Source of the DNA: Hormiphora californensis
Taxonomy: Eukaryota > Animalia > Ctenophora
Direction of reading: 5' to 3'
DNA length: 64,000 bases
Assembly: GCA_020137815.1 (NCBI GenBank)
Contig: CM035353.1
Location: 1,736,001 to 1,800,000, forward strand
The notes below the pieces were generated by a model. It was not told where the DNA came from and did no database searches. It saw only the letters and a program-made list of their open reading frames with translations. Shown here piece by piece: positions 5,550-57,029 of this stretch (positions within the stretch are counted from its first letter, which is position 1; each line of letters starts with the position of its first letter). Made by a program: the position numbers and the translations under genes.

Positions 5550-5574
5550 TATAATAGTTATAGAGACTTCAATG

Positions 5575-5955
5575 AAGAGGTAGTTGCGGATGAAAGAAAG
5601 TATCTTGCCATCAACATTGAATCTGTTTTTCAGTTTGTCTAGAATCAAGTCGTGGTTGCAGCTATCGAAAGCATTACTAAAATCGAAATAAATGATATCA
5701 GAGGCTCGTTTGTTATTGTCAGACTGCACAAGGTCATTGTAGAATGAGACAAGCTGGGTGAGGCAGGATCTGCCAGGTGGAAAACCATGTTGTCTATCAT
5801 CTATTTTGTCAATGCAGTAGTCTAGTAAAGTCTGGGTGACAAGTCTCTCATAAATCTTGCTTGCAATACAAGTCAAAGAAATAGGACGGTAGTTCCTAGC
5901 ATCCCTCTTATCCCCGGACTTGTGAACAGGGACTACATTGGCCGACTTCCAGACT
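5575..5955 (-). mobile_element. LINE (CR1/L2-like) reverse transcriptase fragment
   Basis: WKSANVVPVHKSGDK..NYRPISLTC..QHGF..GRSCLTQL..IYFDFSNAFD. Confidence 0.92.
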
Positions 5956-5966
5956 GATGTTTGATC

Positions 5967-6720: not shown

Positions 6721-7012
6721 GTTTGATCTTATCGTCTAGTTCAGCAACCCTACTCTCTAATACAGCAACTCTATCAAGGCTGGCACGGTGGGTTACCAAG
6801 ATAGCAAAGAGGATATCATTAAGATCGGCATTACCTATCTTCTCTTTCAGCTGTTGCTTTGAGGTAATTTCAACTTCTCCAGGAAACAAATCAAGAATAG
6901 GATTGGACTGGGGAATTTTGCTTTCTACAAATGTTATCCCTATCACTGATCAGCATCACCCAACTGTTTATAAATTAAAGCATATAATGTACTTACTACA
7001 TAATGTACTTCC

Positions 7013-7087
7013 ATTCGATGCTGGAGCCCAAGTAGTGTTCCATGGTGTTTGAATAATGTCGAATGCTTTCTTCAGGTCAATAAAGAG
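7013..7087 (+). repeat. Leader + anti-DxxKAFD cassette, copy A
   Basis: ATTCGATGCTGGAGCCCAAGTAGTGTTCCATGGTGTTTGAA, then a segment whose reverse complement reads LFIDLKKAFDI. Confidence 0.8.
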
Positions 7088-9164
7088 GTAAAACTCGTCA
7101 TTTCTTAGACAGTTTAAAGAGATTTTTTCGATGAACCTCTATTATTTTTTTGCTTTGGATCCCTAAGGCTATATATATATATATAAGGCTAAGGATATAA
7201 GGTGTACCTGAGCTGTGTAGAGTTCTGCACACATTGGCAGCAGAGCCATCTCGTAGCTTTCAAAGTCTTTGTGTTCTAGTTGTAGAAAATCTCTGTGATA
7301 TAGGACTCCTCCTTCCAAGCGAGCAGTCTTTACAAATGGGTAAAACTGGTCATTTCTTAGACAGTTTAAAGAGATTTTCTCGACACACCTCCAGTAGTTT
7401 TGTGGTTGGGATCCCTAAGGTGTACTTCTTGTTATGTGTACCTGCGATAGTTGGGGGGGGGGGGGTCCCCTCCTGTGTAGGCTGCAGCCTCGCTTGGGAC
7501 TGGTAGGCACTAGGCAGTCCATTGTCCATATCATTACAATGAGGGGCCACGCGTAAAACCTCCTGGTATCCAGGGCCCGCCAGGTAACCTCCTCCAGCTC
7601 GGGTATGGCTTCTAGACAGTCGCACCAGAGAGGAGGTACTTCATCAACCGGCTCTGCTGCCATCTCCGGGATCTGCGGGTAGGGTTCTGGAATAGGGACC
7701 AGTGGGGGCGGTGCCGTCCTGGGTACCACGTTCACCGACAGAGGCTCCAAAATTCCAGCATCCGCAACTAGTTGTCTCACCCGGTCGTCCAGGTCTGGTA
7801 GGCACTAGGCAGTCCATTGTCCATATCATTTATTTATTTCTGTTATGACGTTATGAGTATGTGCTCCATCTTACTTGCCTTATGTCTGTCCCTTTGAATA
7901 TGTACTCAAATTCACATAGGTGTAAATAAACTCTTCCTAATAACGGACTCTAAATGAGCTACTAGCGAGAGGTGAATCCCATTACCTCTTGGGCTGAGGA
8001 TCGGGGGGCCACCAGTTTTCCAGTACTTAGTGGCAGACCAGTGCGTATCAAGGAAGCGAAGGTTAGGAAGGGAGCGTGAAAAGTCGAAAACTAAATTATT
8101 TATACACTCAAATTCACATAGGCATGTGTCAGCTGGTAATGGAGCCTCCCGATTACCTGTACCCAATTTCCAAAAGCCACCTCCTTTCTCCCGAAACCCT
8201 TATATACGGAGTCCGTCAGGTTTAGAACTTGCTTAGTACTAGTAGTCAATTGGGCCTGGGGCCGCTTGATTTTGGGGATCACATTCCTCTATAAGTTATA
8301 ATATAAGTGATATATATATATAATATTCTTACATTCGATAATCCACAAGCAGAACCTCTCATCTGATTCACCCAAGTTGTTGGTAGGTTGTTGGTAGGTT
8401 GTTGATAGTTGTTGATTGTTGGTAATAAACGAAGTCTAGAGATTGAAGTGAAATGACATACTTGACCTTCACCCGTTGCCCCCGTTACTCGATACATGCT
8501 GGGTACACCTTGGTGGCTTGGTGCATCTTGGGCTCACCCACATGCATCGTTACATGATGTGATTGCCATAGTATAAGCACTCGGTAACCCTTCCTGTTCA
8601 GATGAACCCCGTCTCTGCTGAATAGCCGATAGTTGTAAGACTTGAAGACTGTCGAAATCTTTTCTGTAATCCACAAACAGTGCCTGGCCAGGATCACGTG
8701 TTCCAGTTGGCGAAGTGTTCAAGGTTAGAATTGGAAGAGGGAGGTGGGTTGGCAAAGGTGCGTTGGAATGGGCAGCTGTAAGTTGTTGTTATGTGCTCCA
8801 TCCATCTTTATACTTTGCATATGGTGTCTGGGCCACATTTAACATCGAATGCTTTCCTAAAACCTATAAAAGTGCCAGAATGCCACGTAAGCTAAGTTTA
8901 ATTCGATTACAAATAACCCATTGTACCTCTGATGCACTCCTACCGGAGATAAAAATACTTTTGTTATCTGCAAACTACTAATTTTAGTATCATTGGAGTA
9001 TAGAACTATTATATCAATATTATATTATATCCATGAGGTGTTATAAGCGTTCTGATTACAACGATGTCCTTGTATCCATTCCCAGAACCGTGAGGGATTT
9101 CATTTTATTACACTCCACATACTCCTGCTTCAATTGTTTGCTGGTAACGATTGCAGAAATTTCC

Positions 9165-9980
9165 ACTTTGGCCAATCTCCTCGTCCCTGGGTCCGACGGG
9201 CACTACCGTAGCAGCTTGTGGAGGAGATCTGTAACGGATCTCCTCCACAAGCTGCTGCAAAAAGTGCTGCTGCAGGCGGAGAAGATGCATCTGCCTATCG
9301 CCTTGCAGCACTATTAGGCAAATAAAGAGTACAATTGCGACAACCACAACTGCTATTATGGTTGCCCGACTCTTCTCCCATAGTTTGCCCAACTAATTTT
9401 CCACCTTTTCCCACAGCTCAGCTCTTCAACCGTTTCCTTTCGTACCTCGTTCGGGCACTTCTTCGCCTGTAATTGAAAGACATCATATATATTGAGCTAT
9501 TCTCAAAACAAAATCTAACATATATTCAGTTATCAAAATGGTCACTAAGTTTCAGGATATCAAGTCAATTATTCCATCTCGATTTTAATTATTCGGGAAC
9601 AAGTTACTTACATTTTACAACTGTATCCGGATTCAGGGACCGGTAGCCGGTACACCCGTTGCAGCTGTGTCGTGATGCTCTAACACACCTGGGGCCATAT
9701 GCCACACCATGTATCGTTAGGGAGGAGGTGCAGTGATGACCTTCCCTGGGTCGTCACATGTACACGGGTCTAAAAAAAGAGTTTTTAGCTGTTAGTTTTG
9801 GTTGAATACAAAACGTCACATGTCAACCTCATCTATGTAAAGTAATGAACCGGCACCCTCCCAATCTCACCAGCTGCTATGGCCCCAAGGTGCTTCGATA
9901 TTACAGTGCATTCCTCTCTGAAGTTGTCCCCGACGTCCAGGGGTACGTGCCACAAACTCCATTACTCGTCTGAGAAAGAA
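9165..9980 (-). pseudogene. Spliced Cys-rich single-pass membrane protein remnant, copy 1
   Basis: Minus-strand AG/GT-bounded exons (DPCTCDDPG..GPRC..SCNGC..; ..RATIIAVVVVAIVLFICLIVLQ) with in-frame stops; duplicated at 11820-12640. Confidence 0.45.
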
Positions 9981-10760
9981 GAAGTGTCAGGGTTAGGTAG
10001 AGGTCAAGTAATAACTCAGTGGGACTACGGACACAAACCCTCACGCTCAAACTTACGGGCATGTCCCGTTTTTTGAGGGTGCTGTCACCGTCCACTTTGA
10101 GTCCCGGTGTGGTTTCGAGGTACAGAAACCTAATGGGAGGACTTTGTTGACAAAGTCTAGAGAGGTGACGGCCAAGCTCTATGGTTTTTCAAGGATGTCG
10201 GAAGCTAATTTCGCCTAATCTAGGTATATTACAAAACTTATATAATTTGAGGGATACACTACATATTCTATAGTTGTTTTCGAGGTACCCTCCTTTATTA
10301 TAATCCCTTTTGTAGTATTTTTTATTGTGAAAAACTTAAAACTGGAAATTGGGGTGGGGGGGGGGGGGGGCTCAGATTATCATTTTAGTAGATTCGATTA
10401 GAATTTTTTAAATTATTTAGTGCTAATTTTTCGATAGCACTACAGCTGACTGCTACAGCTCTATAGTTATTTGGGTCGCCTGCATTCCATATACTGCTCT
10501 TAGGATGAAGCCAACCATTCGCTCCCCCATGTCGAATATTATATAGCCTGTTATTTATATATAGACAAGGAGGTTTTATCCCAGACACATCGTTATACCA
10601 GTGTCATGCCTCTTGATCCACTGCTTCATGGTGTCCACCGTGGCCTGTTTTCCAGGAATCCTGGTCTCCTCCAAGATATCATCATAATTAGGTAAAGACA
10701 CTTAGATCAAAGGCAGCACTAAAAGGTTTAATAGAACAACAAATAGTGGTGAAGTCAGTA

Positions 10761-11516
10761 ACGGGTGATAACTAAAAGATGTCACAAATTTAAAACAGCT
10801 GTAGAATTTTTCCCTTATGAGATACAGCTTCGGGCCAGTTATAGAACGATTTTTCAGACAATTTTGAATCGGGATAATATACCGGCAAAACCTAAAAAGT
10901 TCATTTTTATTGCGATATCTGATCATTTCATCTTGTCGCACCAAAGCATGTAGTACGGAGATTTGAAATTTCTATGTGATCAGAAATGACTTTTCCAATG
11001 AGATAAAATTCTAAAAATTGGAGCTTTGGTTGTTCATGCCATAGCCAACATAACTGCCAAGTTTGAACATTTTAGCTCATTAAGAAATTGGTTTTCACGG
11101 TCATTAATGTTTCAAGAGATCGTCGAAATGGCGATTTCTCAAATTACCTGTAAACTACGCTTTGTTACAGAAGATTCTGATCAGGAAATTGAGACTTATG
11201 AAGTTTGAAACAAAGTTAATTTCGTTCAAAATTGTCTGATAAATCATTCTGTCACTGTCTCGAAGCTGAATCTTGAAAAGAACAGGTGCTAGAGGTGCTA
11301 GAAAAGTGTGTAAATTTCACGTACTAAATGCTTTGGTGGGGCAAAAGGAAATGATGTGATATCGCAATGAAAACGAACTTTTTAGTCTTTGCCGGTATAT
11401 TATTCCGATTCAAAATTGTCTGAAAAATCGTTTTATAACTGGCCCGAAGCTGTATCTCAAAAGGGAAAAATTCTACAGCTGTTTTAAATTTGTGACATCT
11501 TTTAGTTATCACCCGT
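10761..11516. mobile_element. Fold-back element, TA target duplication
   Basis: Arms ACGGGTGATAACTAAAAGATGTCAC / GTGACATCTTTTAGTTATCACCCGT; the paralogous empty site GAAGTCAGTATTGTCAATAA at ~14060 confirms the TA TSD. Confidence 0.92.
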
Positions 11517-11819
11517 TATTGTCAATAATATCTTTGTTAGATCTGCAGTAAGATAGGTTACGTCAAGTGATTTGACATACATTTATAAATTAACATATAC
11601 TTTTATTTATTATTAACATGTACTTTTATTCGATGCCGTAGATAATGGTTTCACCTTTAGTCTCATCTTTAAACTTGCCTAACACCGCCTAATTATTATC
11701 CAATCGAGATAAAGAAACAAAAAAACATTGGTAATATAAATTACATACAATACATCTATTCAGATGTTTAATAACACTCATAAATAGTTAGTAATCTAGT
11801 CTTCAAAGACCAGGGAAAG

Positions 11820-12640
11820 GCCACTTTGGCCAATCTCCTCGTCCCTGGGTCCGACGGGCACTACAGATCTCCTCCACAAGCTGCTGCAAAGAGTGCTGCA
11901 GGCTACTGGCTGCATCTGCCTATAGCCTTGCAGCACTCTTAGCCCTTAGGCAAATAAACAGTACAATTGCGACAACCACAACTGCTAGTATGGTTACCCG
12001 ACTCTTCTCCCATAGTTTGCCCTACTAATTTTCCACCTTTTCCCGCACCTCCTCTTCAACCGTTTCCTTTCATACCTCGTTCGGGCCCTCCACTTCTTCG
12101 CCTGTAATTGAAAATGAATCATCATATATATTGAGCTATTCTCAAAACAAAATCTAACATATTCAGTTATCAAATTGGTCACTAAGTTTCAGGATATCAA
12201 GTCAATTATTCCACCTCGATTTTAATTGTTTTATTACAACTGTATTAATTGTTTTATTACAACTGTATCCGGATTCAGGGACCGGTAGTCGGTACACCCG
12301 TTGCAGCTGTGTTGTCTTGCTCTAACACACCTGGGGCCATATGCCACACCATGTATCGTTAGGGAGGAGGTGGTGATGACCTTCCCTGGGTCGTCACATG
12401 TACACGGGTCTAAAAAAGAGTTTTTAGCTGTTAGTTTTAGTAGAATACAAAATAAAACGTCACATGTCAACTTCATTTATATAAAGTAATGAACCGGCAC
12501 CCTCCCAATCTCACCAGCTGCTATGGCCCCAAGGTGCTTCGATCTATTACAGTGCATTCCTCTCTGAAGTTGTCCCCGACGTCCAGGGGTATTCCACAAA
12601 CTCCATTTCTCGTCTGAGAAAGAAGAGGTGTCAGGGTTAG
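11820..12640 (-). pseudogene. Duplicate of 9165-9980 (spliced Cys-rich TM remnant, copy 2)
   Basis: High identity to 9165-9980 with indels. Confidence 0.5.
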
Positions 12641-12782
12641 GTCTCTCAATGGATCCATATTCCTCACGGCATTAAGCAGGTTTATTTCCTGCCAGTAGTC
12701 GTGTGTACTGTGTATCATTCATTATTTCAATTCAGGGTTTCCATAGAGGATTTTATAAGTTTTAAAACTAGTACATATATAA

Positions 12783-12868
12783 TATTCTTTTCGATGCCGT
12801 GCCGTAGCCAAAGCAGTGCTCCATGTTATTTGAAAAATGTCGAATGCTTTAGAGTAGTCAACGAAGAC
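12783..12868 (+). repeat. Leader + anti-DxxKAFD cassette, copy C
   Basis: Same leader; reverse complement of the variable part reads VFVDYSKAFDI. Confidence 0.8.
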
Positions 12869-13323
12869 TCATTGTCTTTTCTTAGTGATCAGTTTATGGA
12901 GATATTCTAAATGGCCCAGCAGGTCTAGTTGGCATCCATCCGTTATTTCCTGGATGTATAGGTACCCATTCAGTGACAGCAGGAAACTGTCAAGTTTTCC
13001 ATACAGGGCAACAAATACAATTAATAAAAATGTTAAAATTGGAAAACCATATTTCTCAGGGTGTATACCTCTGATTGATTTGCTGCTTGTTCCACTTCCT
13101 CATAGAGCCAGAAACCATATATGCTGTTCTTTAGTCGGATAGGGTCCAAAATGCTTGTAAAGTTGTATTGTACTTCTCACGACTCACACTACGCATTGAA
13201 GAAAAGGTATTTGAAACTGATGGACAGATAATTTCAAGCAATTATTCACAACTCACCAATTACCGGGTTCTACATTTCAGATTATATGTAAGTTATGAAT
13301 ATAGTTTATAAATGAGCATTTAA

Positions 13324-13410
13324 TATTCTTTCATTCAATACCGGAGCCCAAGCAGTGCTCCATGCATGGTAAAGAATGTCAAAAGCCTTTGAGAAATCGA
13401 AGTAAATGAT
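13324..13410 (+). repeat. Leader + anti-DxxKAFD cassette, copy D
   Basis: Leader CCGGAGCCCAAGCAGTGCTCCATG; variable part reads IIYFDFSKAFDI. Confidence 0.8.
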
Positions 13411-13610
13411 AATTTCGCATTGACTGAACAATTAATCTTTTGGTGTTTCGCAATGTCGAATAAGTTTTGTATTCATTGGGATCGGTACTCAGTATCAAAC
13501 GCTGTACTCATATCAAGAAAATAATAATATGCATATAGGATAGGGGGCTCCGAATACCGGTCTGAGAATCAAATCTAAATACATATTAGCTATAAAATAA
13601 TTGTCATGTG

Positions 13611-13698
13611 TATTCTTTAATTGGATACCGGAGCCCAATTATGTTGTGCTCCATGGTATTTGAACGGTGTCGAATGCCTTTTTCAGGTCTATGAAAAA
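13611..13698 (+). repeat. Leader + anti-DxxKAFD cassette, copy E
   Basis: Variable part reads FFIDLKKAFDT. Confidence 0.8.
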
Positions 13699-14267
13699 GC
13701 TGATATTTTAATGTTCCACGCTATGAATATTTTGGTGATAACCAAAACACTTCCTTCCACTTCTTTGCAAGCGACGGCACGTCAAGGGTTCCATATACTG
13801 CTCTTATAGGATGAAGCCAACCATTTGCTCCTCATGTCGAATATTATATAGCCTGTTATTTATATATAGACAAGGAGGTTTTGTCCCAGACACAATTATC
13901 GTTATGCCAGTGTCATGCCTCTTGATCCACTGTTTCATGGTGTCCACCGTGGCCTGTTTTCCAGGAATCCTGGTCTCCTCCAAAATAATATCATAATTAG
14001 GTAAAGACACTTAGATCAAAGGCAGCACTATAAGGTTTAATAGAACAACAACTAGTGGTGAAGTCAGTATTGTCAATAATATCTTTGTTAGATCTGCAGA
14101 AAGATAGGATACGTCAAGGGGTGATTTGATATAAAGATCTGATCAGGGAGAGTGACAGCCTCCTTGACAATATTGGTGATCATTGTGGTTTCGTATAGCA
14201 TGTCCTGATACTCCATTCCTTCATTGTTTCCGCTCCCCTAGCACATACATTTATAAATTAACATATG

Positions 14268-14349
14268 CTTTTATTCGATGCCGTAGACCAAGTGGCACTC
14301 CATGCGGTATTCGAATACTATCGAAAGCTTTCTTGAAGTCAAAATAGAT
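14268..14349 (+). repeat. Leader + anti-DxxKAFD cassette, copy F
   Basis: Variable part reads IYFDFKKAFDS. Confidence 0.8.
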
Positions 14350-15021
14350 ATGTTACAGAAGCTATTTACTTGCAATTTACAACTGCGCTTGGTTGTAATG
14401 GAAATTGCACCCTTTTATCCAACTGAATATCTCACTTGCTACAGGATAGTTACTCATATCAAAATGCTCCCTCATTTCCATCACCTTCTCTTAAAATTAT
14501 CGCAGGTGCTATGATACAAAAACTGTCTGTATATCGGTGAAACGAAGCACCGATAAGGACGTCTGCTGATGTGTAGCTTGATTACTGATCTTTCCTGTCA
14601 AATTGGGTGGGGTGGGGGAATTATAATTTATAATGCTCAAAACTCAAAAGTTTGCCGATGGCACTACTAACTGCAACTGCTTTATTATATTATAGTTGTC
14701 TTCTGTTGCCCATTCTATTGCCCATTGTTCTTCTGTTGCCCATTTTGGACAATCAATATAAGTTAAATTAGCTAAGAATTAAAACCTTAAGTATATATAG
14801 TAAAGTACTGTGAACAGTGCTTTTAGGACGTTTTTGCTCTAAATATCTTAAATATGCCATAGTTCATCTCCACTTTCTTTTCTTTGTTACATGTCAGTTA
14901 TCATGAACTGTGAAATTTAAAAATGTTAATAAATTAAAAATAATCATTGCGCTGGCAGAGGTACTCCTATCGGATCCCCCCGAAATTTGAAAAAAAATCC
15001 ATTTAATGATATCATCTTATA

Positions 15022-15197
15022 CAGTCGGACCCCGATTTAGGGGCCCCCGATTTAGTGGCATCCCGATTTAGGGACAGGATTTTTTTTCCCCGATATAGGA
15101 AATTAACATTATTTGACCCCGATTTAGTGGCACCCCGATTTAGTGGACAAGAGCCTAGCCTTTCCCCCGAGGGTGTCCCTAAATCGGGGTCCGACTG
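15022..15197. mobile_element. MITE, CAGTCGGACCCCGATTTA family
   Basis: TIRs and TA flanks. Confidence 0.92.
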
Positions 15198-15460
15198 TAC
15201 TATTATATCTTCTTGTTATAGCTACATCATCCGTGAATATCAATTTAATGTTAATTAATCGAATCAATACTTTATATATGTGGGAAAGCAGTGTCAGCGC
15301 TGTTGCACCACGAATCAATACATTTCCAAAATACAGGATTTTCTGTTTAGCTAGAGGATGGCTAGCTGTTATAGTATAACTTATACAGTGAAAGCTCTCC
15401 TGTTTTTTCATTTCTTTTGCTATAAAATTTACTGTTTTTCTTATAAACTTAATGTCTCTC

Positions 15461-15658
15461 TCAATCCCTGAACCTGAAGGTACGTTGTCTGTACGTTGCC
15501 TGTTCCTGTCTGCCCGCCTGTTCTATAGCCAGTGCAGTTCCATTCTGCCGATCGATTCCTACACACATCGCTACTGCGTGTGTTGTCAGAGCCACACGTC
15601 TTTCGATAGCCTGGCTGTGGCATGGCACATCATTGAGATCCACTGTTAGTTCAAGCAA
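15461..15658 (-). mobile_element. DNA transposase C-terminal fragment (PCHxQAxER motif, hAT-related); duplicated at 16446-16600
   Basis: VPCHSQAIERRVALTTHAVAMCVGIDRQNG resembles the PCHTQAVERxVKLVTEA..VCG..RDG motif. Confidence 0.6.
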
Positions 15659-16737
15659 GGTTATAGGATTTAGCGTGCCGTCCTCCGCTATGTAACAGGT
15701 ATATCCCTGCGGAATAGAAGGTAGTTGTTAAAACTGGAAATTATACGAAACAAACGGTATCTAATTCAATCTGGGCAATGAACTTACATTCACTCCAATT
15801 GATGTGGTGATAAGTTGGCTGACAGATGTTGCGCCCAGGTTCACTTTGGGCTTGCGGTACACGTCCCCCACTCTCCATGGTTTGAGGTTATCGAACTGTA
15901 CTGAGGGAGGGTTTTTAATATGAGCAAGTGAGATAATTTCTACTTTTTGGTCACCCATGTATTTTGGTCAGAAAAAGTTAAGGGTGAAATGAATTAGCCT
16001 GACGTCTTTTCGACCGAATCATCTACAAAGTGAGCTACAAAGTGAGCTCTCCCTCTCTCTCTCTTCGATATTTAACATTTGTTGCACTGACATCACGAAA
16101 ACTAAGAAAATAGATTACAAAAAATACAAATCAGTCTGTAAATTAAACAGACTCCCTCTCTCTGTCAGCTGGACTAATATAATATGTCTCTTCTATACAT
16201 CTTAACATCTTCGATATTTAACAATTGTTGCACTAACATAAACAGCAGTAGCGATGTGTGTTATAGAAATATGTCACAAAAATACAAAGCAGTGAGTGCA
16301 AGTGTCTGTTAAGTGTAAATTTAACATAACCCTCTCTGCCCAGAAAGACGTGTGGCTCTTAAAAACAAGCAGTAGCGATGTGTATAGGAATAGAAGAGGA
16401 TAGATAAGAGAGCCCGTGAATAACAGCACAGTGTCTCTAATCATGTCATCGTGGATCATCTAATCTATCCTCTTCTATGGCTAAAGCAGTACCGTTCTGC
16501 CGATCGATTCCTACACATATCGCTACTGCGTGTGTTGTCAGAGCCACACGTCTTTCTATCTCCTGGCTGTGGCACGGCACCAAGTCCAGTTTGAGTTGAC
16601 TGTTGAGTAACGGGGTTAAGGGTGCCATACTCAGCAATATATAGCAGGTATATTATATCCTTGCGGAATAGATAGCTCTTGTTCTTGCATCGAGATGAAG
16701 GGTTGGATCTGCAAAAGGTTTCCTTTCCCCGGCCTGC

Positions 16738-16920
16738 TAATTACAGATCCTGAAAGGATACTCGGCAGCTGTACCAGGCCATATACACTGTATATTATAC
16801 AGACGACCTGGGCTGGAACTATTCTATAGCACTGCTATAGAATAGCTCCAGCCCAGGTCGTCTGTATAATATACATGTATATGGTACAGCTGCCGCGTAT
16901 CCTATCAGGATCTGTAATTA
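16738..16920. mobile_element. Palindromic MITE / hairpin
   Basis: TAATTACAGATCCTGA...TCAGGATCTGTAATTA with ~85-bp complementary arms around GCACTGC. Confidence 0.8.
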
Positions 16921-17025
16921 TTAGCTATACACCAGCTGGTAAACACGCGCTGCAGTAAATGAAACTTACCAACATCGCATTTGTATCTCTGAAATGAAAT
17001 CCTAAATATATCAAAACGTGTATAG

Positions 17026-17112
17026 TATTCTTTCATTCGATGCCGGAGACCAATTAGTACTCCATGGTGTTTCAAGAATGTCAAACGCCTTGGCAAAGTC
17101 TAGGTAAATCAC
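17026..17112 (+). repeat. Leader + anti-DxxKAFD cassette, copy G
   Basis: Variable part reads VIYLDFAKAFDI. Confidence 0.8.
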
Positions 17113-18724
17113 ACTGCCATTATATTTTAAAAGTGCTATGGAAGCAAAGAACCTCGGCCATGTGTCCAGCCTGTCTGCCTGTTTTGCTGTCATGAATTCC
17201 TCCAGTAATTAACGCACCACCTTCTTAGGAGCCCTTTGTCAGTTCACTGGTGATCGTGTTGACTGTTTTTGTGCAGTCGCCGAAAGTAGAAGAGGAAGAA
17301 CTCATGTTAATGTTTAGGGGATTGGGGTAGGACTTAAGGAAGCGACGAGGTGTTAGGTGTATGTTAATGTTTGTAACAATGGGAGAATGATAGATGCGTA
17401 CTCTGGGTGGTGTTGTTCAGTAGCCTTAATAAATCCTTAAATGGTGGAGTCGGTCGTGCTGACTGTTGAGGATGTATCCATATTACAGGGTTTTCTATTT
17501 CCCCCGAACCATCTGTAATCCGTCGCGAATAAACTCGATAGTTTTTATTCGTCAGTAATTCACTTGTTGTGGAATATATACCGCTTTGTTTTAAATGTTG
17601 TCTGAGAGCGTATAATGGCAGGCAATGGGCACGTTCCCCGAGTGGCAGAAGCGGCGTGCTTTGTTCACAATGATGACCTGGAATTAATGTCAACTTTCTC
17701 TCAAATATATTTTCGCATGTCGTGCATTTGTATGTTGGCTTATTCATTTCTAATTAGAAACCTCCGATTCCACATCTAGTTCTCTTCCGTTCATCCCAAA
17801 CTCTGTGGTATTTTTGTAGTGCCTTCCCAGGTATGGAGTTAACTCCAAAGGACGATCCAGCAAGTATCCTGGTCAATCAACGTTTGTGTTTTAAACAGGA
17901 AATCATAGAATTATATCAGAACTACCCTGTGGGCAGGGGCCTGCCAGGGGGTTCTGAAGAAGAGGGCGGTAGAGTGGGCACCACCCTGGCAGCCCAAGAA
18001 GAAGGTGGGTAGGTAGTTGCTAAATAGGGGTTGAATCTCTACTAGGAAGTGTATTATTGACAGTAAATCCGAGAGCCGCAACAAAGGCTTTAGCAAGTTG
18101 ATTGATTGATTGAAGAAATTTAATGTTGAACAAAATAATGGACAAACACACTATAAAACAGTCCGTAATTTAGCCCGTCCCCGTGCGAGGAAAATCGCTA
18201 GTCACACTAAAAACAAAAGGAACTCAAAACAGTTTCTCGAAGATCCACAGGCTTGTGGGGAAATGTGTGCACATGTGTATTCCTGTCCCCCTGGCCTTTC
18301 TATACAATCTGCTAGATCACCGTTTTTCGTTCCTATTTATTTAATTAATTGATATACCACAGATCTAGTTCTTCTACATCTGATCCAAACACGTTATTAG
18401 TGTCTACGTATTCTCCTCCTTGTCGAGTAAGGGCAGCCAGGGTTAATTGCCCAGCCATACAAGTTATTGGCATCATCGTCTCGTGGGGACGTGGGAGAAA
18501 AAGAGCTCGTTCATATTATAATAAGTACTCATGATATTATATATATATATATAAGTATATAAGTAATATTTTCCCTGTGTTTGCTGCTTCGACAGACTGT
18601 TGCAAAACAAGGCAATGATCTCGTACTCTGTCTACTCCTAGCTACACTTATAAAAGTTAATATAAAGATACTTTATAAAGATATTTTCCACACAACCCAG
18701 CTCTACAGCTGACTATGTTTTATA

Positions 18725-22758: not shown

Positions 22759-24510
22759 AACTAAACTAACCAGTGACCGTTTTAACTCAGGTCGGCCTCC
22801 GTCAATGTCTCCTTTAGAAATTGTCCTCTTCTTACAGCGGTCAAGACAGCGTTGTACTGTTTAATGTTTATTTATATAAAACTTTATTAATTAATATAGA
22901 TGGTCTTTGTGACTGTCTAGTCATCTCCTTGTGGTAGTCTCCTGATCCCACAGCCTACTTGCTGATCCTTGAAACTCAGCGGGATATTGTTCCAAAATTT
23001 CACAAATCTTTTCCGCTCGTTTACCGCATTATAGGTATGAGCAATTGGAAAATATCAAATACCAAATACAATTATATGATATTTTAGACTGCCATATTTA
23101 CGCTCGTGAGTTGCTTAAAGTGTGTCGGTATACTGGCTCCCAGTTATACTCTCCAGGTCAGTAAGTACGTCGTCTATATGGTCCACCAGTTGAGAAAGAC
23201 CTTGCTGTCCTGTATTGAGAACATCATTATATATTTGATGGAATTCTAGTTGTGTTAGACATGATCTTCCTGATCTGAAACCATGTTGGCATGTTGGTTA
23301 TGATAGCAGAGATAGTAGAGTTAGTGGTCATTCGTCTGTACACTTCATCAGCGGTAATTGCAATAGCCTGGTTAGTTTTGACTGATATTGCCAACAAGAT
23401 CCTCAGCACAGAGGGAGCCCGGTCCTTCGATTTTTATATTAGACAAGTTTTTTAACAAGTTTGTTGTCTGGCGGCGATGAGTCATCACCAGAATTATTAT
23501 CTTCATCAGGAGGGTCATCATCGGCTTGTGGGTCAAGGCATGACATCGGGAAACAAAACATACCTCAAATTAATTTTATGAAATTAAATAACCAACTCCG
23601 TCGTAACATGTATTATTATTATGTATTACTATTATAATGTACAAGCTCGCAAGTAAATAATAAATATGTGCTCAAACAGACTTTTACTTGCAACCACTTA
23701 CACTATAGTTTATTGCTGATTGTAGAAATGTCCAGGGGAGGTTTAACTCAATCAAAAACTTATTTATTCATTACACTCATTTTATGATTTATGAAATTAA
23801 TTCATATGAACCACTGCCATGTTAAATATTGCATGAGCATACTTCAATGCTGCGTCACATGTTAGTGCCGGAAGTTACACCATTTCTTACAACATTTTTT
23901 ACAACAAGTCATCAATCTCGCCTTACAGGGGTTTGCTTGTTCGTTAATTCTCTACACACCTCCAGTAATTCTGAGGGATGGAACCCTTCGGTTCAGCGGG
24001 GCCATGAAGACCTTGGGGAACTCGGAAGGGGCGGGGTCGTAGGGGTGCACCCTGTTAGTTCTAACCCTTATCTTACCCCCTGATGATGATATCGGAGTGG
24101 GGGGTTGAGGGGTCGGCATGGTCATCCTGAATTCCTCCACTGCCTCTTTTAACATTTCCCGCATAAAGTCACACTTACTTCTGTTCTGCTCCCACCTGGC
24201 CCTGGGGGAGCTAGCTCGTCCAGTTTCTTCTTGCTTTCGATGAGTCTTGGTATTGTCTCCACTCTCATCGTGTAGTAAGTGGTCGTCAGATTCACTATCT
24301 TCCATAGACCGTCAGGAACTAGTTCAACGTCCTCTCCGATGAAAATGGCCGTGAGTGTGGGAGGAAGATGAACGCATATGGGCACTTTGTATAATACTAG
24401 CCTTAGATGGATTCTAAGCTATACTAGATAGTAATATTCTAGAATCGACATGTTTTTACGGTAGATACTTACATCTAGTTTCTTGTCGGTAAAGAATTTC
24501 TCTATCTCCG

Positions 24511-24789
24511 TTACTTCTGGTTCAGACAGGAGGGAATAGTATTTAGAAAAGGTCTGTATCTCCGTTTCGCTCTGTACCATATATGTGATGATGCAGTCCT
24601 CGCTTTTATTTCTTTCATTCTAGGACATTCATACAGGATGTGTTCGGCGTTTTCTTTGGTGTTGCATATGTCGCAGTATGGAACTATACGGTTTGACACG
24701 GTTTGCAAACAATTCCACACGGGTTTCCCGATGCGTAGGAACTGGGTGGTGCCTGGGTGGGTTGAACGGAATTCCGTGAGTATCTCCAA
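24511..24789 (-). mobile_element. LINE ORF2 C-terminal CCHC knuckle fragment
   Basis: CDICNTKENAEHILYECP. Confidence 0.75.
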
Positions 24790-25480
24790 CAGTATGCAGT
24801 ACTCAGTAGTTTCCCAATTGCGCTGCTAAGTTGAAGATTTTTCCAATTTCTTTGGGCATTATTCTAGGAGCTCGTACACAGTACATGTAACTAAATCAAT
24901 CTAAAATACTTAAACTCAATCTCCATCATAGTTTATAGAGATGGTATCTCAGCTTCCGGCTTGATCAACAGGGACAAAATGAAATTACGGTGTTTTATTA
25001 AACGGAACAGTTTCGATGTCACAACATCAATCTCCATCAGCAATATCTTCATTATCTTCTAAAAAGGAGTCTGTTGATGAATTGTTGATATATTCTTCTA
25101 TAATTTTAGTGACTTCTTTGTTAGCCCTCGATGTTGTCATGATAGTTATCGGGATTGCCCCTATTCCCCTTCTTATGTAGAGGAGTAATAACGCTATTGG
25201 TCCACGACTATGATCAGTTCTACTTCCTGACAGCGCGGGGCCTGTCAAGTACGTCTTCATGGTGATGTTTTTCGTTAGCCGCACCTCTCGCTTAATACCG
25301 TTGAATTGCTGCCCTAACTCCTCCTATGGAGTCCACTACCCGTAGATTTGAATCGATTCCTCGCCAATATATTAACTAGTCCCAATTGCCGGGAGGATCC
25401 TCATTCACTTGCGGTTAATATTGGCGATTAATAATTGAATACTCTTATATACTAATATTAGTATTAACATACTTCTTAGG

Positions 25481-28495: not shown

Positions 28496-28523
28496 TTGTT
28501 CAATTTAGCATGAATTAGTCGTA

Positions 28524-28695
28524 CAGTCGGACCCCGATTTAGGGACACCCTCGGGGGAAAGGCTCTTGTCCACTAAATCGGGGTGTCCACTAAATCGGGG
28601 TCAAATAAGGTTAATTTCCTATATCGGGGGGAAAAAATCCTGTCCCTAAATCGGGGTGCCACTAAATCGGGGGCCCCTAAATCGGGGTCCGACTG
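28524..28695. mobile_element. MITE, CAGTCGGACCCCGATTTA family
   Basis: TIRs; the empty paralogous site ATGAATTAGTCGTATAAAACC at ~27270 confirms the TA TSD. Confidence 0.93.
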
Positions 28696-29001
28696 TATAA
28701 AAACCAGAATAATTGTGGTATGGTGCCACTTGATTTCCCTATCCTATCATTCACCCGGGTGGGGAAATAATCTATAAACTCACCAAGATTATTTTCTTCC
28801 GGACCCTCGAGGGCAGTAGGATCCTACTGCCCTTCTTTTGGACTATCACTGTTAACCGTTTATGTAAGGCGCTTTCGATAGAATCATCTTCAGTAACATC
28901 CCTACAACGATATATGTTAGAAACAATAATAGTCTGTAGAGATGGTATCTCCTTCCGGCTGGGTCAACAGGAACAAAATGAAAATACGGTGTTTTATTAA
29001 A

Positions 29002-30130: not shown

Positions 30131-30397
30131 TCACTTCTCCCAGGAGATTACTCCTGCACACTCTCTCATCTCATTACACTCCTGGCAAACTCTACTCTCA
30201 ATCTCAGCAATATCCCAAATACAATCAGCAAGAAACTCAGACTCGTCCTCTAGCTGGAGCCCGGCGATGACCCAGTTGTATTCCTCCCATGCATTCACCT
30301 CCACGTCTACTCCAACTGCTTTCAAGACAAGCAGAGCCCTAAGGGATTGGCCTTTACTCTCCAACGCACTTTCCATCAGGTATCGCAATGTAGCTCC

Positions 30398-30433
<36 letters not shown>

Positions 30434-31144
30434 TCTCTCCTCCTCGTTCAGTTTCTCGATCTTCCTGAAGTCTGCCGCTGTTGGTGTAGGCTTCAGCAGT
30501 AGGGCTTTCACGGACTCGGAGGGTGTCAATCCTACCTTCCTCGTCAAATCGCTAACTCTCATCCGATGAGAAAGAACAACATCCTCCATTATCCATTCCT
30601 TTAGCTCCTCATTCGTCTCTCTGATGTGGTGTAGCGTGGCCCAGTCACAAGCCAGTAGGATCATGTGGATGAGCTCCATTGGGAGGTTGATCAGACTGAA
30701 CAGCATCTTCTTGATAGGTAGGTTGATCGTAGATAGCAGCCCGGTGATTGCCCACTGGTACTCTTCCCAGACGTTAACCTCCACCTCCACTCCAACGGAT
30801 TTCCAGATTAGCACCGCCATGAGGGACTGGGCCGCACTCTCCAATGCACTCTCCAAATAGTATCGTAATGATGCTCCCTCCATCTCTCTCTCTCTCTCAA
30901 CTCTCTCCTCCTCGTTCAGTTTCTCGATCTTCCTAAAGTCTGCGGCTGTTGCTTTAGGATTCTGGAGTATAGCTTGTACGGCATCGGAGGGTGTTGTCAG
31001 CCCCAGCTTCCTCGCCACTTCGCGGACTCGGATTCGGTGAGACAGCTCTGTATCCTCCCTAATCCAATCTCTAGCCTCCTCATCCACCTCACTCATCTGC
31101 CGTAGGGTGGCCCAGTTGCATGCCAGTAGAATCATATGAGGCAC
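30131..31144 (-). CDS. Unknown protein with tandem ~160-aa repeats beginning with an F-box-like motif
   Basis: Open 337-codon frame; LINLPMELIHMILLACDWATLHHI resembles the F-box consensus; the end of a third repeat is frameshifted at 31140-31245; paralogous piece at 27440-27720. Confidence 0.5.
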
Positions 31145-31677
31145 GCAATTACCCAGCTATATTCAGCCCAGGCATTGGTCTCGAGTTCAACCCCGACTTC
31201 TTTAAGGAGAAATAGTGCCCTGAGGCATTGCCCTCCACTCTCTACTAATGTCGCTGTATACATAGTCGTAATATAATATCTTGGTGACATGCGTCATGCA
31301 TGTTAAAAATATCATAAAATAAAATTAATTATTTATCATAAATTATCTACATATATTATCTTCCCGTATCTTTGGTTTCCTACTCACAAAAACGAAGGAA
31401 ACTGATTCTCCAGGACGGTCTTAACTTTGTACTTTACGCAGAATAGCTAAGATTTTTAGACAAGTTTTAAAAATGGTTCAGGTCGGTGTTACCCGACCCA
31501 TGAATATACACAATGATAATTTATTTAATATGTAATTTAAAATAGTATTTCTAAATAATTTTATAGTTCATATGGTTCATGTGTTGCCACGCTTGCTATT
31601 AGTCTCATCTTCAGTAGTTGATAGCAGTACATGTATATGGACAACTGAGACAATGATTTTATTGCAGGAAATAAATT

Positions 31678-31974: not shown

Positions 31975-32125
31975 CGTTGGGCCTTCCAGCACGGAATCCA
32001 TGTTGCTTCTTGGAGAACAGTCCATTTTTCTCAAAATAGTTCACCATGTGTGCTCTTACTATCCTTTCGAATAGCTTGATAATATGAATAGTCAAGGTGA
32101 CTGGTCGGTAGTTTTTTGAGTCTGC
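31975..32125 (-). mobile_element. LINE RT fragment
   Basis: KNYRPVTLTIHIIKLFERIVRAHMVNYFEKNGLFSKKQHGFRAGR. Confidence 0.85.
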
Positions 32126-39590: not shown

Positions 39591-41150
39591 TCCTCCTCAC
39601 TGAAGCGCACCGTGTGAGGGCTTGCTTGAAAATCTCCGAAACCGTCAATTATAATTAACTAATTACAATTACTAATTAATTAGTAGCCCGCCGGGTTTGT
39701 TTATTACAGCGTAGGGGGTGTTATACTGGATCCCTTCCTTGACAAATAAGCCTCACGAAGATCCGAGTCCTTTCCTAGAGGTTCTAACTTATACATTAGA
39801 GTTAGTTAACTCATACATATTAGATTTCAATTAATCAATATTATTCAATTACTTAAAATCATATAAAATTAATTATAATCACATAAAATATTTTAGGAAA
39901 CTAACTTCCTAAATACAGCCGGAGCCATAGTTACTGGATCGGTAGGATGACCCATCGACAAAGTGGACCCCTTAATTACTCGTCTCCACTTTCCATGCCT
40001 ACCCACGTTCTTTAACATTTCGTTGCAGTTCTTGGTACTGCTTTTGAGTCAACATATTATATAATATGTAGCTATATTAACCTTCAAATATAATTGATAA
40101 TGAATGTCACGATCAATCAATGTTAGTATTCTCTCCTACTATCATTACATTTCCTGAAAATCTAATGAGCGAATCGGTGGTACAGAATCTCCTTGTTCTT
40201 ACCTGCTGCAGTCGGTAGGAAATTTTGATGGTAATTTAGAAACTAGATAGTTATGAAAGTGTACATTTAGAAATGATCAGAAATCCTTTGTGAGTTGGGT
40301 AAAGCGCAAAATGGTGCCACTACCACACTCAAACATTTGCTCTTGCTACTATGTAGTTATGTTTGTATGTCACCAGTGTTGATGACATTTTTATATAAGT
40401 CTCTTGTCCTTTTTTACCCATACAAACTGTAAACAACCTGTGCCCGGAGAAAGCGACCCATAGAACTCCCATAGAAATTCCTCAATATTGCTTCTTCATC
40501 ACACTGTCTTTATTTCTGGCTTTAGTAAACACACAGGTGACAGAACGCGGCTTTCCCCCCGTAACTGTCACAGACAAAATCCAAGCGTCCCTCAAAATCT
40601 TAAACAAGTGTCTCATGTGTCCTTTAAACATTATATCCCAGTAAACATTATATCCCAGTAAACATCGTATCCCGGTAAAAATTATCCCAGTAAATTCAGT
40701 AGACAGTTGGGTGATCGGATAATTGTTTATTAGCCTCATGTCTGATAGTCAGAGTTTTTATTATTCTCTCTGGGCTGAACGAATGAACCAATAAAAAATC
40801 TGAATATGAGTAAATTCATTTTTGCAAAAATCAAGTGTCTCATGTGTCCTTTAAACAATGTCACCACGCTTCAACGCTTGTTTTTTGGGAACCTCGTAGC
40901 ATTTCTTTTTCAGTTCTCTCTGCAGGCTGCGGTTGATAGCTGAAGGATGTTGGCGGTCCCGTCCTTCTTTAGATGCTTGTCTCTGAGCTCAATAGTTGTA
41001 TATAGTTACCAGACGCGGCTTGTCAAATGTTCGATCCATCTCCTCGAGGAGATGGATCGAACATTTGTACTCGCCTGTAAAATAGAAAGAGAAAGCTTTT
41101 CTAAAGATAGCCAGAGAGATTCGGGAAGAGCTTCGAAATACAAATAAATA

Positions 41151-42715
41151 CAAGGTGGGCCACGGATTGTTGGTAAGGGTTAGCGAGTTGTCCCGTCAAA
41201 ACGGTGATAGTTGCGAGAATAAAAATCATGGGAGCACTCTGGATCAATTTCTTGGTAACTTTTTCCATAATTTTTTGTCAAAAATTCGAAAATTCATTTT
41301 TCATTCCTTCATTCATTTCTCGTTCATTTATGATGTGAGCATCCTAATTTTCCATCATGGTGCTATTTTTCTTTGGCTTGAATTTATTTTTCCAATGAAC
41401 ACCATAAAAATGAAATTGAAGCACCAGGTCACGTTGCAGTTGAGAAAATGCTCATGCATGATTTTGGCTCTTCCTGCGACTTTCAATGAGCTGTATCACG
41501 GCTCCCTTTTGTTCAATCTTTTTCAAAATTTGGGTGAACATTGGATAAACAAAGATCTTTGCTCACAAGAAAAATCAAGGTCAAAACTCAAAGTTCATTT
41601 TTCATTTTTGGTAGTTCATTCCACTCATTCAGGAACTAACATCCCTAAAGTCATGAAAAGTTTTGGGTTTTGTTTGGCCTATGCTCTGCAATGCCAGAGA
41701 GGTGTTGTAGCGTGATTCCGGGCTAGTTTTTGGGTGTCCATGTGATCATGATGATACTTGACACCTTATTTGGGCCATAATTAAGAGATTTTCTCAAGTT
41801 GAAGCATGTTACTTGGGTTTTCTGTGATTGATATCGTGAAACAATGTTATGGGATCCCATAGCACCCCTAAAATGATGATTAATTCAACAAAATGGGTTG
41901 ATTTATGATCGAAATTGTTCGTTTAGTTAAGTTTGTCTTCGGTTTAAATCTTTTCAATAATAAATCAACTCATTTTGTTGAAATAATCATCATTTTAGGG
42001 GTGCTATGGGATCCCATAACATTTTTTCACGATATCAATCACAGAAAACCCAAGTAACATGCTTCAACTTGAGAAAATCTCTTAATTATGGCCCAAATAA
42101 GGTGTCAAGTATCATCATGATCACATGGACACCCAAAAACTAGCCCGGAATCACGCTACAACACCTCTCTGGCATTGCAGAGCATAGGCCAAACAAAACC
42201 CAAAACTTTTCATGACTTTAGGGATGTTAGTTCCTGAATGAGTGGAATGAACTACCAAAAATGAAAAATGAACTTTGAGTTTTGACCTTGATTTTTCTTG
42301 TGAGCAAAGATCTTTGTTTATCCAATGTTCACCCAAATTTTGAAAAAGATTGAACAAAAGGGAGCCGTGATACAGCTCATTGAAAGTCGCAGGAAGAGCC
42401 AAAATCATGCATGAGCATTTTCTCAACTGCAACGTGACCTGGTGCTTCAATTTCATTTTTATGGTGTTCATTGGAAAGATAAATTCAAGCCAAAGAAAAA
42501 TAGCACCATGATGGAAAATTAGGATGCTCACATCATAAATGAACGAGAAATGAATGAAGGAATGAAAAATGAATTTTCGAATTTTTGACAAAAAATTATG
42601 GAAAAAGTTACCAAGAAATTGATCCAGAGTGCTCCCATGATTTTTATTCTCGCAACTATCACCGTTTTGACGGGACAACTCGCTAACCCTTACCAACAAT
42701 CCGTGGCCCACCTTG
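41151..42715. mobile_element. 1.56-kb fold-back element (TA-flanked, ~750-bp arms)
   Basis: TA|CAAGGTGGGCCACGGATTG ... CAATCCGTGGCCCACCTTG|TA; arms nearly identical with a few substitutions. Confidence 0.93.
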
Positions 42716-42756
42716 TACATACATATCATATAATATGTAGCAATTATTTGATTACC

Positions 42757-42940
42757 CAGTATAACTCCAGGTTGGATAAAATGTGTGGCGAACACTCCGA
42801 TACCAGCATTTGGTATACTCGAATCGGCCAACTTCACAAAACTCGGAACCTTGCTGGATCCTTAGTTCCCTGCCTAGTAACCACTTTGGCCATGTTCTTC
42901 ACAGACATCCAGAACATAGTCTCTGCACCATGGACAGTGT
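42757..42940 (-). pseudogene. PRDM7/9/11-like zinc knuckle plus start of PR/SET domain (disrupted)
   Basis: HCPWCRDYVLDVCEEHG..(2 stops)..VKLADSSIPNAGIGVFATHFIQPGVILG; GT donor, with a likely next exon at ~41076 (..G EYK). Confidence 0.65.
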
Positions 42941-47559: not shown

Positions 47560-48200
47560 TGCACCCTAGGGATAGTAATTTGGAATGGGGGACCTCGATC
47601 TGAACTGCTCCTTCAGCTCTATATATCTCGTGCTCTGGTGTACATCTTCAATATATCCATCTGGCACTTTTCGCATTTTTTCCTGGTAATCGAAAATCGT
47701 ATCCCGCACGGCAGGGCATTCTACTAATTCTTCTTCAGTTGTTCTGTAACAGAAGATTGCACAAACGTGCACTCTTCATTATAATGCATTATCATTCCAT
47801 TATTCTGTGGCGGTGCGATACAAAGTGACCGTATATATCCTTCCGACCTGGTCTGTCAAAGATCAACGGTATAACCTCTTGGCTCTTATTTCTTATCAAA
47901 TACTCCAAAATATATTTCTGAATGTGTTTAATATACCTGTCAGTTCGTACAGGTATATTTTGAAGAGTTCTGGTGACATTGGATGACCCTGCTGAGTGCC
48001 AATGAGCACTTCAATTCGTTCTGATAGTTTCCTGAGTAGCTTTATTTTGGCTGAAGAGCTGGTGTACATATCTTCCAGGACGCCAAAAAAGTTATCTCGG
48101 ACCCCGTACCTCCAGAGCTTGAACAGAAGGGCTTCACGGCATACTGTGTCAAACGCCTTAGAATAATCAATGAAAGCCGAGTAAAGTCTAGCCGGCCTCG
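47560..48200 (-). mobile_element. LINE ORF2 fragment (RT plus degenerate C-terminus)
   Basis: YSAFIDYSKAFDTVCREALLFKLWRYG..IEVLIGTQQGHPMSPELFKIYL. Confidence 0.85.
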
Positions 48201-56330: not shown

Positions 56331-57029
56331 CTAAACACGGCGGTAGTGGTAGAGGGGTAGTTTCATTTCGTTTTTCATAACACGGCCGTGAAGGCTAGAT
56401 TTTGAGATGTTGGTTCCTTACCTGGTGTAAACACAACTCGGATGCGAAGAGTGTGTGACCGTATGAATGAAATAACAAACTCAGAAAATGATTCACTAAT
56501 ACAGGGAAGTTTAAGTAAATAAATATAATCAACTGCAACAATATAAAGCAAGGGTACCAAGGTATACCCGGCCCTGCAGGACGCCAGCCAGAATCTGGAA
56601 TATGCCAGTCTGCCAAGAGTGAAGCGACCTTTTTTATTTTCAAATAATAACACTATTTCTGTCTGTCTTTATTTTATTTTTATCTAATCAAAGGTTTTAA
56701 TTTTATATTTTATACTTTGGGCTCCCTTGTTGGCTGACGGCGTCTGGGTTTCCAGTCATGAAAATGCAAAACAGAAGGATGTTGCTGTACAGTTTTCCTA
56801 TACAGCTGTCAACCGTAATTAGCTCTGTAGTTATCCGGTTTGTTGGTGGCACCCTTTTTATGGAGCACAGCTCGGTGATAAATCACTTTTTATAGCCATT
56901 AAAAAATATGTGATCTCGCTATTATATATACCTTTGACTTAACTGACTTATGGCGGCCGGAGAGGTCGAGTAGTACTGAACGATCTCCAGTTATCCCGGT
57001 TGCACATAAGTTCAAGCATTTCGTTACTA

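Follow-up and report, generated by a model that had tools for sequence, protein, structure and literature searches.

Local cassettes pairing a conserved leader with segments antisense to a LINE reverse transcriptase motif in the ctenophore Hormiphora californensis: candidate piRNA-type guides

The DNA considered here, 64,000 nt of contig CM035353.1 of the ctenophore Hormiphora californensis (assembly GCA_020137815.1, positions 1,736,001 to 1,800,000), is referred to as the window, and all positions are those of the whole stretch. Between 7.0 and 17.1 kb, the window holds six intact copies of a compact cassette, all on the + strand. Each opens with an AT-rich stretch and a leader of ~45 nt; 3–4 variable bases separate the leader from a T that is the same in all copies, and the ~30 nt that follow are antisense to the hhhDxxKAFD codons of motif A in the reverse transcriptase (RT) of long interspersed nuclear elements (LINEs). 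We call the last segment the guide, and its coordinates start at the invariant T; the first base 3′ of that T (7058, 12839, 13378, 13669, 14320, and 17080 in cassettes 1–6) serves as the anchor of each copy. The six cassettes are as follows.

6969..7087, + strand: cassette 1; TATAAA at 6969, leader at 7013–7054, guide at 7057–7087 (anti-LFIDLKKAFD).
12776..12868, + strand: cassette 2; leader at 12794–12835, guide at 12838–12868 (anti-VFVDYSKAFD).
13307..13410, + strand: cassette 3; TATAAA at 13307, leader at 13333–13374, guide at 13377–13410 (anti-IIYFDFSKAFD).
13591..13698, + strand: cassette 4; TATAAA at 13591, leader at 13620–13665, guide at 13668–13698 (anti-FFIDLKKAFD).
14252..14349, + strand: cassette 5; TATAAA at 14252, leader at 14273–14316, guide at 14319–14349 (anti-IYFDFKKAFD).
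17020..17112, + strand: cassette 6; leader at 17035–17076, guide at 17079–17112 (anti-VIYLDFAKAFD); no TATAWA match upstream.

A preliminary description of this stretch had claimed six such cassettes, and all six were found in the places and on the strand that it gave, with their motif reads recovered; over ten codons, the reverse complements read LFIDLKKAFD, VFVDYSKAFD, IYFDFSKAFD, FFIDLKKAFD, IYFDFKKAFD, and IYLDFAKAFD in cassettes 1–6. The shared leader that it described is equally firm, as every one of the 15 leader pairs aligns far above shuffles (z 9–19, 0/300) with a mean core identity of 0.75 across the six copies. The TTTGAA with which it closed the leader is altered in copies 13378 and 17080. 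Contigs from a second study (X5/X6, one sample) span the leader–guide junctions of cassettes 2, 3, 5, and 6, and therefore the cassettes are not an assembly artifact; contig coverage was examined over 12600–17300, which leaves cassette 1 outside, in X2 (the probable source sample) and in X5/X6. A run presumed to be RNA (X7) placed 0 contigs on 12600–17300, which has no bearing on expression. No difference in the contigs falls inside a guide, among 40 of 245 listed. Judged from the sequence of one locus in one species, the architecture is real and non-random and has apparently been selected.

Variation among the guides is shaped by the codons of the motif. Mean identity at codon positions 1, 2, and 3 is 0.71, 0.85, and 0.40, and the minimum numbers of changes are 9, 3, and 15 over 30 nt (permutation p = 0.017); for the leader, read in the frame that suits it best, the corresponding numbers are 4, 4, and 5. 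The preliminary description had argued that neutral decay of a single duplicated fragment would not leave six valid motifs, and such decay is rejected. In simulations of neutral decay at the observed divergence, run on a star tree without insertions or deletions and with a motif pattern written after the six copies had been viewed, the motif was kept in 4.5% of copies, and all six motifs were kept in 0 of 20,000 runs. When three degenerate copies (near 8650, 8844, and 10197) are counted as failures, leaving out a leaderless piece at 13494 and two scraps without a guide, 6 of 9 copies kept the motif (p = 6e-7). The guides are not the product of neutral decay of one ancestor.

Two RT fragments in the window, each from a different LINE family, provide the reference for what the guides could pair with.

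5574..5960, − strand: RT fragment (RVT_1) of a CR1-like LINE, DIIYFDFSNAFD, an example of a likely target family.
47923..48189, − strand: RT fragment from another LINE family (the second family), AFIDYSKAFDTVCREALL; its predicted pairing with guide 2 covers 29 of 31 nt when G:U is included.

The second-best relative of the first fragment is a Pleurobrachia bachei record (76%), and the species-named relatives of the second are five Mnemiopsis leidyi proteins (62–72%). Homolog sets of 116 CR1-like and 112 second-family RTs, 228 in all, were both seeded from LINEs of the window. Exact copies of the 9-residue guide 3 peptide occur in 79 of the 116 CR1-like RTs, and 5 of the 112 second-family RTs carry the guide 2 peptide exactly; every one of the 228 homologs lies within two residues of some guide. 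At the nucleotide level, guide 2 forms 23 Watson-Crick and 6 G:U pairs over 31 nt with the LINE at 48148, the mismatches falling at nt 25 and 30. Guide 5 forms 24 and 4 pairs of 31 with the LINE copy at 5664, and guide 3 forms 23 and 3 of 31 with a window LINE copy, whereas guides 1 and 4 reach 18–20 at best with window copies. A bias toward C- or A-ending codons that would favor wobble pairing was considered and is not convincing (22 C to 9 T in the guides versus 45 to 30 in the window LINEs).

The complementarity runs from the T to nt 28–34. Mean guide identity is 0.59–0.78 at offsets 0–29 and drops sharply to 0.22 at offsets 30–39, and all six copies have negative profile scores for the codons 5–10 upstream of their first Asp. 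This limit is not where RT conservation ends, because 114 of 116 CR1-like homologs retain an Asp five residues ahead of the motif, versus 0 of 3 CR1-type guides; the Tyr or Phe found at that upstream site in 111 of 112 second-family homologs is likewise absent from guide 2. PIWI-interacting RNAs (piRNAs) are 24–32 nt long, and a complementary tract ending at nt 28–34 is of piRNA length.

The leader is a local sequence. A leader-only hidden Markov model (HMM) built from the six copies finds these at E < 1e-14, as it must by construction; beyond them, in the 64-kb window, it finds a half-leader at 11614–11642 (E = 1e-4) and otherwise scraps at E > 0.2. A covariance model (CM) scan of the 64 kb found no further strong cassette, the next matches being LINE motif pieces and degenerate cassettes. 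Summed X2 contig depth is 142–383 over the cassette bins versus 10^3–10^6 over neighboring repeats, a comparison that applies to copies at least 80% identical and in which contig filters can hide records. At that identity, therefore, the leader does not belong to any high-copy repeat. The preliminary description had allowed that the leader could be an ordinary part of a short interspersed nuclear element (SINE) or LINE; instead it is low-copy at 80% identity or above, local, and confined to the + strand. A SINE or LINE 3′ tail was rejected for the same reasons, as strong copies in the window are neither dispersed nor in both orientations, lying only at 7.0–17.1 kb and all on the + strand.

The leader is predicted to fold. 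The GGAGC-N9-GCTCC hairpin first proposed for it captures only part of this fold, which is a longer, interrupted hairpin of ~15 pairs over ~45 nt, ending 3–4 nt before the T. The six leaders together have a mean folding energy of −12.1, compared with −8.2 ± 1.0 for shuffles (0/300, the copies being related), and a hairpin structure is plausible. Upstream of the hairpin, by 18–44 nt, TATAWA occurs in 5 of 6 cassettes compared with 332 of 1194 AT-rich 40-mers (28%), again with the caveat that the copies are related; the 44-nt case includes a short local duplication.

Read in reverse complement, the leader gives HGxLLGLRH, which lies 13 nt past KAFD in five of the copies (15 nt in the sixth) and resembles the HxxLLxKL that real RTs carry 9 nt past KAFD. 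Against a CR1-like post-KAFD profile, two leaders exceed shuffles (0/200 and 2/200), two are marginal (7/200 and 9/200), and two are not above shuffles. Together with the clear post-KAFD scrap that follows cassette 1, this makes remodeling of an antisense LINE fragment a likely origin of the leader, with weak support. Two results count against such an origin: the leader profile scores are negative, far below those of a real LINE, and comparison with post-KAFD LINE DNA was not significant (best 27/1000 among 18 comparisons).

Around the intact cassettes lie trailers, broken copies, and scraps, all listed on the strand of the cassettes.

7104..7136, + strand: trailer of cassette 1, a second antisense LINE piece (post-KAFD) that reads RKNLFKLSK; homologous to the cassette 2 trailer.
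7339..7420, + strand: duplicate of the cassette 1 trailer, 87% identical; the minus strand of 7356–7388 reads VCRENLFKLSK.
8318..8339, + strand: possible scrap of the leader 5′ part (weak, E 0.45).
8579..8688, + strand: possible degenerate cassette with guide FVDYRKDFD (weak, CM E 8.3).
8803..8881, + strand: degenerate cassette with a broken leader and guide FIGFRKAFD (CM E 0.29).
10132..10237, + strand: degenerate cassette of the 17080 type; guide with a stop and a 3-nt insertion (CM E 1.6).
11575..11642, + strand: truncated paralog of cassette 5, with the AT-rich upstream part and the leader 5′ half but without a guide.
13464..13530, + strand: short antisense piece FLDMSTAFD without a recognizable leader (CM E 0.19).

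The partial copies that the preliminary description had noted near 8650 and 8844 are present, but each has lost a residue of the motif (DYRKDFD and GFRKAFD). The leader of the copy at 10132–10237 is related to the 17080 leader (z 4.5, 1/300), and the truncated paralog, which contains the half-leader found by the HMM, is 90–97% identical to 14243–14287. In all three degenerate copies, a broken leader is accompanied by a broken motif. RT similarity had been said to end just beyond the guide; this is true of the in-frame motif but not of the flanking DNA, since a second antisense LINE piece follows the 7058 guide and is duplicated at 7356–7388. That trailer exceeds all shuffles against both the cassette 2 trailer (z 5.6, 0/300) and the set-B LINE profile (0/300). 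Trailers align in 1 of 15 pairs, namely cassettes 1 and 2, compared with 15 of 15 for the leaders, and the DNA 62–130 nt upstream of the cassettes gives a best pairwise z of 3.2.

The interval from 6.4 to 17.6 kb is a patchwork of local duplications, which explains the multiplication of the cassette. Recent local duplications among the cassettes include 9163–9998/11821–12642 (87%) and 10485–10760/13789–14069 (94%). An element with 210-bp inverted repeats (92% identity) occupies 10756–11521, and one of its ends is duplicated beside cassette 5. About 100 nt upstream of cassette 6 lies a 183-bp near-perfect palindrome (16738–16920, 90%), possibly a foldback element or a source of hairpin RNA. A short element at 15017–15200, with a copy at 28521–28700, has inverted ends of ~29 bp and internal 15–16-nt repeats; it belongs to a very high-copy family resembling miniature inverted-repeat transposable elements, with a summed contig depth of ~10^6.

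The wider window has a marked strand bias. With LINE homologs as queries, the LINE intervals lie on the minus strand in 6 of 6 cases under strict settings and in 14 of 14 under lax settings (two of the latter being cassette-only), and an RVT_1 open reading frame (ORF) at 49690–50307 is likewise on the minus strand. A one-strand piRNA cluster transcribed from the + strand would show the same antisense bias. An intron of a + strand gene could be a partial source of the bias. The RT fragment of which that ORF forms part, at 49690–50518 on the minus strand, is frameshifted (RVT_1 E 2e-20) and antisense to the + strand; from its motifs we take it to be of the long terminal repeat (LTR) type. Short antisense pieces of other LINE motifs occur at 25142–25204, 23223–23288, 31994–32113, 56724–56865, 10424–10510, and 24622–24654; they read, for example, ITPLHKKG..PDNY and QHGFRSGRSCLTQL, and by eye have no common leader. 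These pieces may reflect detection bias or may be further motif-sized guides.

Elsewhere in the window, 59531–60604 (+) is an intact single-ORF G protein-coupled receptor of the rhodopsin family (7tm_1 E 3e-15) with one unnamed homolog, 76% identical. An ORF of 170 residues at 63332–63844 (+) has no Pfam match and gave mixed leads at 0.92–0.94 in the ESM Atlas, and a 341-residue ORF at 30131–31156 (−), also without a Pfam match, contains an internal duplication of ~160 residues. Inverted copies of one ~600-bp stretch, with identical translations, lie ~0.5 kb apart at 41086–41715 (+) and 42151–42861 (−) and could form a long fold-back RNA. At 266–592, (GA)n runs directly into (TC)n; this large palindrome of simple repeats produces many spurious Rfam microRNA (miRNA) matches.

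The reading that we favor, holding it with about as much doubt as conviction, is that the cassettes are locally duplicated piRNA-type sources whose complementarity has been kept to a motif common across LINE families. The starting point would have been a piece of LINE lying antisense in a locus resembling a piRNA cluster, its post-KAFD part being remodeled into the leader before the cassette was duplicated locally. Selection would then preserve the complementarity of every guide to a motif variant of its own, with point changes mostly at wobble positions. Transcription of the + strand could begin at the TATA-like element 18–44 nt upstream of the leader, or the cassettes could be carried within a long cluster transcript. 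The leader hairpin would mark the 5′ end of the guide, a cut 3–4 nt past the hairpin giving a 5′-U end, and the guide would be loaded on a PIWI protein and trimmed at its 3′ end. Guides of ~30 nt would direct slicing of LINE mRNAs within the KAFD codons of RT motif A. Guide nt 2–13 would lie opposite the D-F-A-K codons, whose first and second positions do not vary, so that a single guide could suffice for many LINE families.

Several observations, as well as the design of the decay simulation described above, weigh against this account. Guides 1, 4, 5, and 6 have no exact peptide match among the 228 homologs, which come from two biased sets. The best LINE matches, 23–24 of 31 for guides 2, 3, and 5 with only three old window copies to compare, are set against best matches to sibling guides of 22–24 of 31. 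Taken singly, leaders fold clearly better than their own shuffles in 2 of 6 cases (z −2.5 and −2.8, the others −0.5 to −1.3). Compensatory change is found at 0 of the 15 hairpin pairs, and covariation is at shuffle level (308/500) with 80% of cells paired. In the 13378 copy, the U that would start the guide is predicted to be paired, and the invariant T is also expected from a LINE codon after Asp or from common descent. Outside the organism, no relative of the leader was found, its pattern giving 0 matches in metagenome and viral contigs. The lone metagenome match to a pattern of leader end plus motif (L001) is a chance match, with a long bacterial-looking ORF and a negative leader HMM result.

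The cassettes could instead be non-functional by-products, a short-element or LINE-tail remnant having been repeatedly fused to, or converted by, a LINE at KAFD, the DNA patch that is conserved best, and then duplicated, with the codon pattern inherited from different LINE donors. We consider this unlikely. In its favor, independent donors would yield codon-shaped variation without selection, the region is rich in segmental duplications and antisense LINE scraps, the hairpin lacks covariation, and the leader weakly resembles post-KAFD RT while a real post-KAFD scrap lies 3′ of cassette 1. It fits poorly, however, with the confinement of all copies to 10 of the 64 kb and a single strand, and the X2 depth of 142–383 excludes a high-copy family that carries the leader at 80% identity or above. 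Nor would donor tracts all end at 28–34 nt while the RT is still conserved, and the joint loss of leader and motif in 3 of 3 degenerate copies also counts against it.

A second possibility, to which we give rather little credence, is that the cassettes are functional but that whole guides are exchanged at once, the source being LINE RNA or cDNA, or sense small RNAs of ~30 nt. On this equally doubtful view, the exchange would take place at the conserved KAFD core, by recombination or by a switch of template, amounting to a crude form of repeat–spacer acquisition. In its favor, a block of six consecutive mismatches (LK versus YS) separates the guides of cassettes 1 and 2, two copies with a common leader and trailer. 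Guides of similar leaders are no more alike than others (Mantel rho 0.04, 325/720), and the third codon positions of the guides are near saturation, whereas leader identity stands at 75%. With six sequences, however, the Mantel test has little power, and the leader tree may be star-like. A near-perfect LINE DNA copy, the donor that spacer acquisition calls for, was not found for any guide among the window copies (best 24/31), and long-term selected point change predicts the same codon pattern, as described for the plant miR482/2118 family (PMC5026261). We doubt to much the same degree the strongest form of the idea, that of dedicated, individually transcribed anti-LINE guide genes in which a constant hairpin is joined to an exchangeable guide of ~30 nt captured from the motif-A codons of LINE families.

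The cassettes could instead yield a different RNA product: a TATA-driven mini-gene might produce a structured antisense RNA of ~80–100 nt that acts whole, small interfering RNAs of endogenous origin (endo-siRNAs), or 25-mers starting with U. This, too, seems improbable to us, as does the version in which the whole RNA acts with its hairpin as a protein handle and the guide as specificity. The TATA-like element does lie near promoter distance in 5 of 6 cassettes, and the work of Calcino et al. on Mnemiopsis reports piRNAs, abundant endo-siRNAs, and a 5′-U 25-mer class of unexplained function, but no miRNAs (PMC6211395). A tract of 28–34 nt counted from U nevertheless suits the length of a piRNA better than 21 or 25 nt, and the 25-mer clusters are described as unstructured and not enriched in transposable elements (TEs) (PMC6211395). 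Words from the guides and leader gave 0 matches in 12 supplementary files of that paper, files that may lack read sequences. No Rfam family was found at the cassettes (whole window, E up to 5; 16960–17140, E up to 10), and a T5 run within guide 4 speaks against RNA polymerase III. Three further candidates were discarded: a regular array of the repeat–spacer type found in clustered regularly interspaced short palindromic repeats (CRISPR), as anchor-to-anchor spacing is irregular (5781, 539, 291, 651, and 2760 nt) with other repeats between; a tRNA-led polymerase III small-RNA gene, as ARAGORN found 0 genes and guide 4 contains the T5 run; and a suspected resemblance of the leader to 5.8S rRNA, which the Rfam search did not support.

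Animal piRNA defense is generally portrayed as a family-specific memory drawn from trapped TE copies. If the cassettes are indeed piRNA-type sources, guides selected against a catalytic RT motif would constitute an innate, cross-family layer that could strike LINEs new to the genome. They would also represent convergence on the scheme of plant miR482/2118, within a lineage from which miRNAs are reportedly absent. Should the guides prove exchangeable, the system would be a programmable, motif-directed, class-wide transposon defense with spacer-like renewal in an animal. The cassettes offer exact predictions, namely six 5′ ends and a slicing site within the KAFD codons, and the leader is a candidate cis-signal that defines piRNA 5′ ends in an animal of an early-branching lineage, part of whose small-RNA repertoire lacks an explanation.

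Among the titles and abstracts listed in searches of an open-access collection, subscription journals not being covered, none describes cassettes of this kind; the closest comparisons are with several known systems. The cassettes resemble a one-strand piRNA cluster of the flamenco type in that the TE fragments of the window are all antisense to one strand. Ordinary piRNA clusters contain long, family-specific TE pieces that are processed without a dedicated leader. In the cassettes, unlike in flamenco-type clusters, a constant leader is followed by motif-sized guides of ~30 nt. A different kind of likeness is offered by 3′ tRNA fragments (PMC7472051) and miR845, which act against the primer-binding site of LTR elements. 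The cassettes differ from both in that they would target a coding motif of non-LTR elements, so that several guide variants are needed to accommodate codon and residue variation. What they would have in common is a class-wide TE defense directed at a site that is hard to change.

The tapiR1 locus of Aedes (10.1101/2020.01.15.907428) is similarly a small repeated locus proposed as a source of defined, selected piRNAs. Its conserved piRNA comes from tandem repeats and silences host maternal mRNAs, whereas the putative cassette guides are diversified, irregularly spaced, and TE-directed. The 21U mini-genes of Caenorhabditis elegans, whose precursors are ~28 nt long and number more than 15,000 (PMC6436959 and PMC7917550), are likewise clustered loci, in which a constant element lies upstream of a variable guide starting with U, and the cassettes, too, may be individually transcribed. 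In the cassettes, however, the constant part is ~45 nt long, predicted to be structured, and abuts the guide; there are six intact copies rather than thousands; and a single RT motif would be targeted. A shared upstream motif of the 21U kind is limited to the TATA-like element in 5 of 6 cassettes, the nematode motif itself not having been searched for.

The nearest parallel is with plant miR482/2118, whose diversity is concentrated at the third codon positions of its target, the P-loop of genes for proteins with a nucleotide-binding site and leucine-rich repeats, as reported by Zhang et al. 2016 (PMC5026261). Both systems would set paralogous antisense guides against one conserved coding motif, with diversity at third positions and an origin from the target sequence itself. 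The cassettes differ in that their target is a transposon RT motif and that the guide, of ~30 nt, lies outside the predicted stem and has no miRNA/miRNA* duplex. A test for a miRNA-type stem failed, as the guide is 3′ of the leader hairpin and at most 9–12 of its 5′ bases enter a short alternative stem in the predicted fold. The host is, moreover, a ctenophore, a group reported to be without miRNAs (PMC6211395). We would class the cassettes, provisionally, as a novel form of small-RNA defense against transposons.

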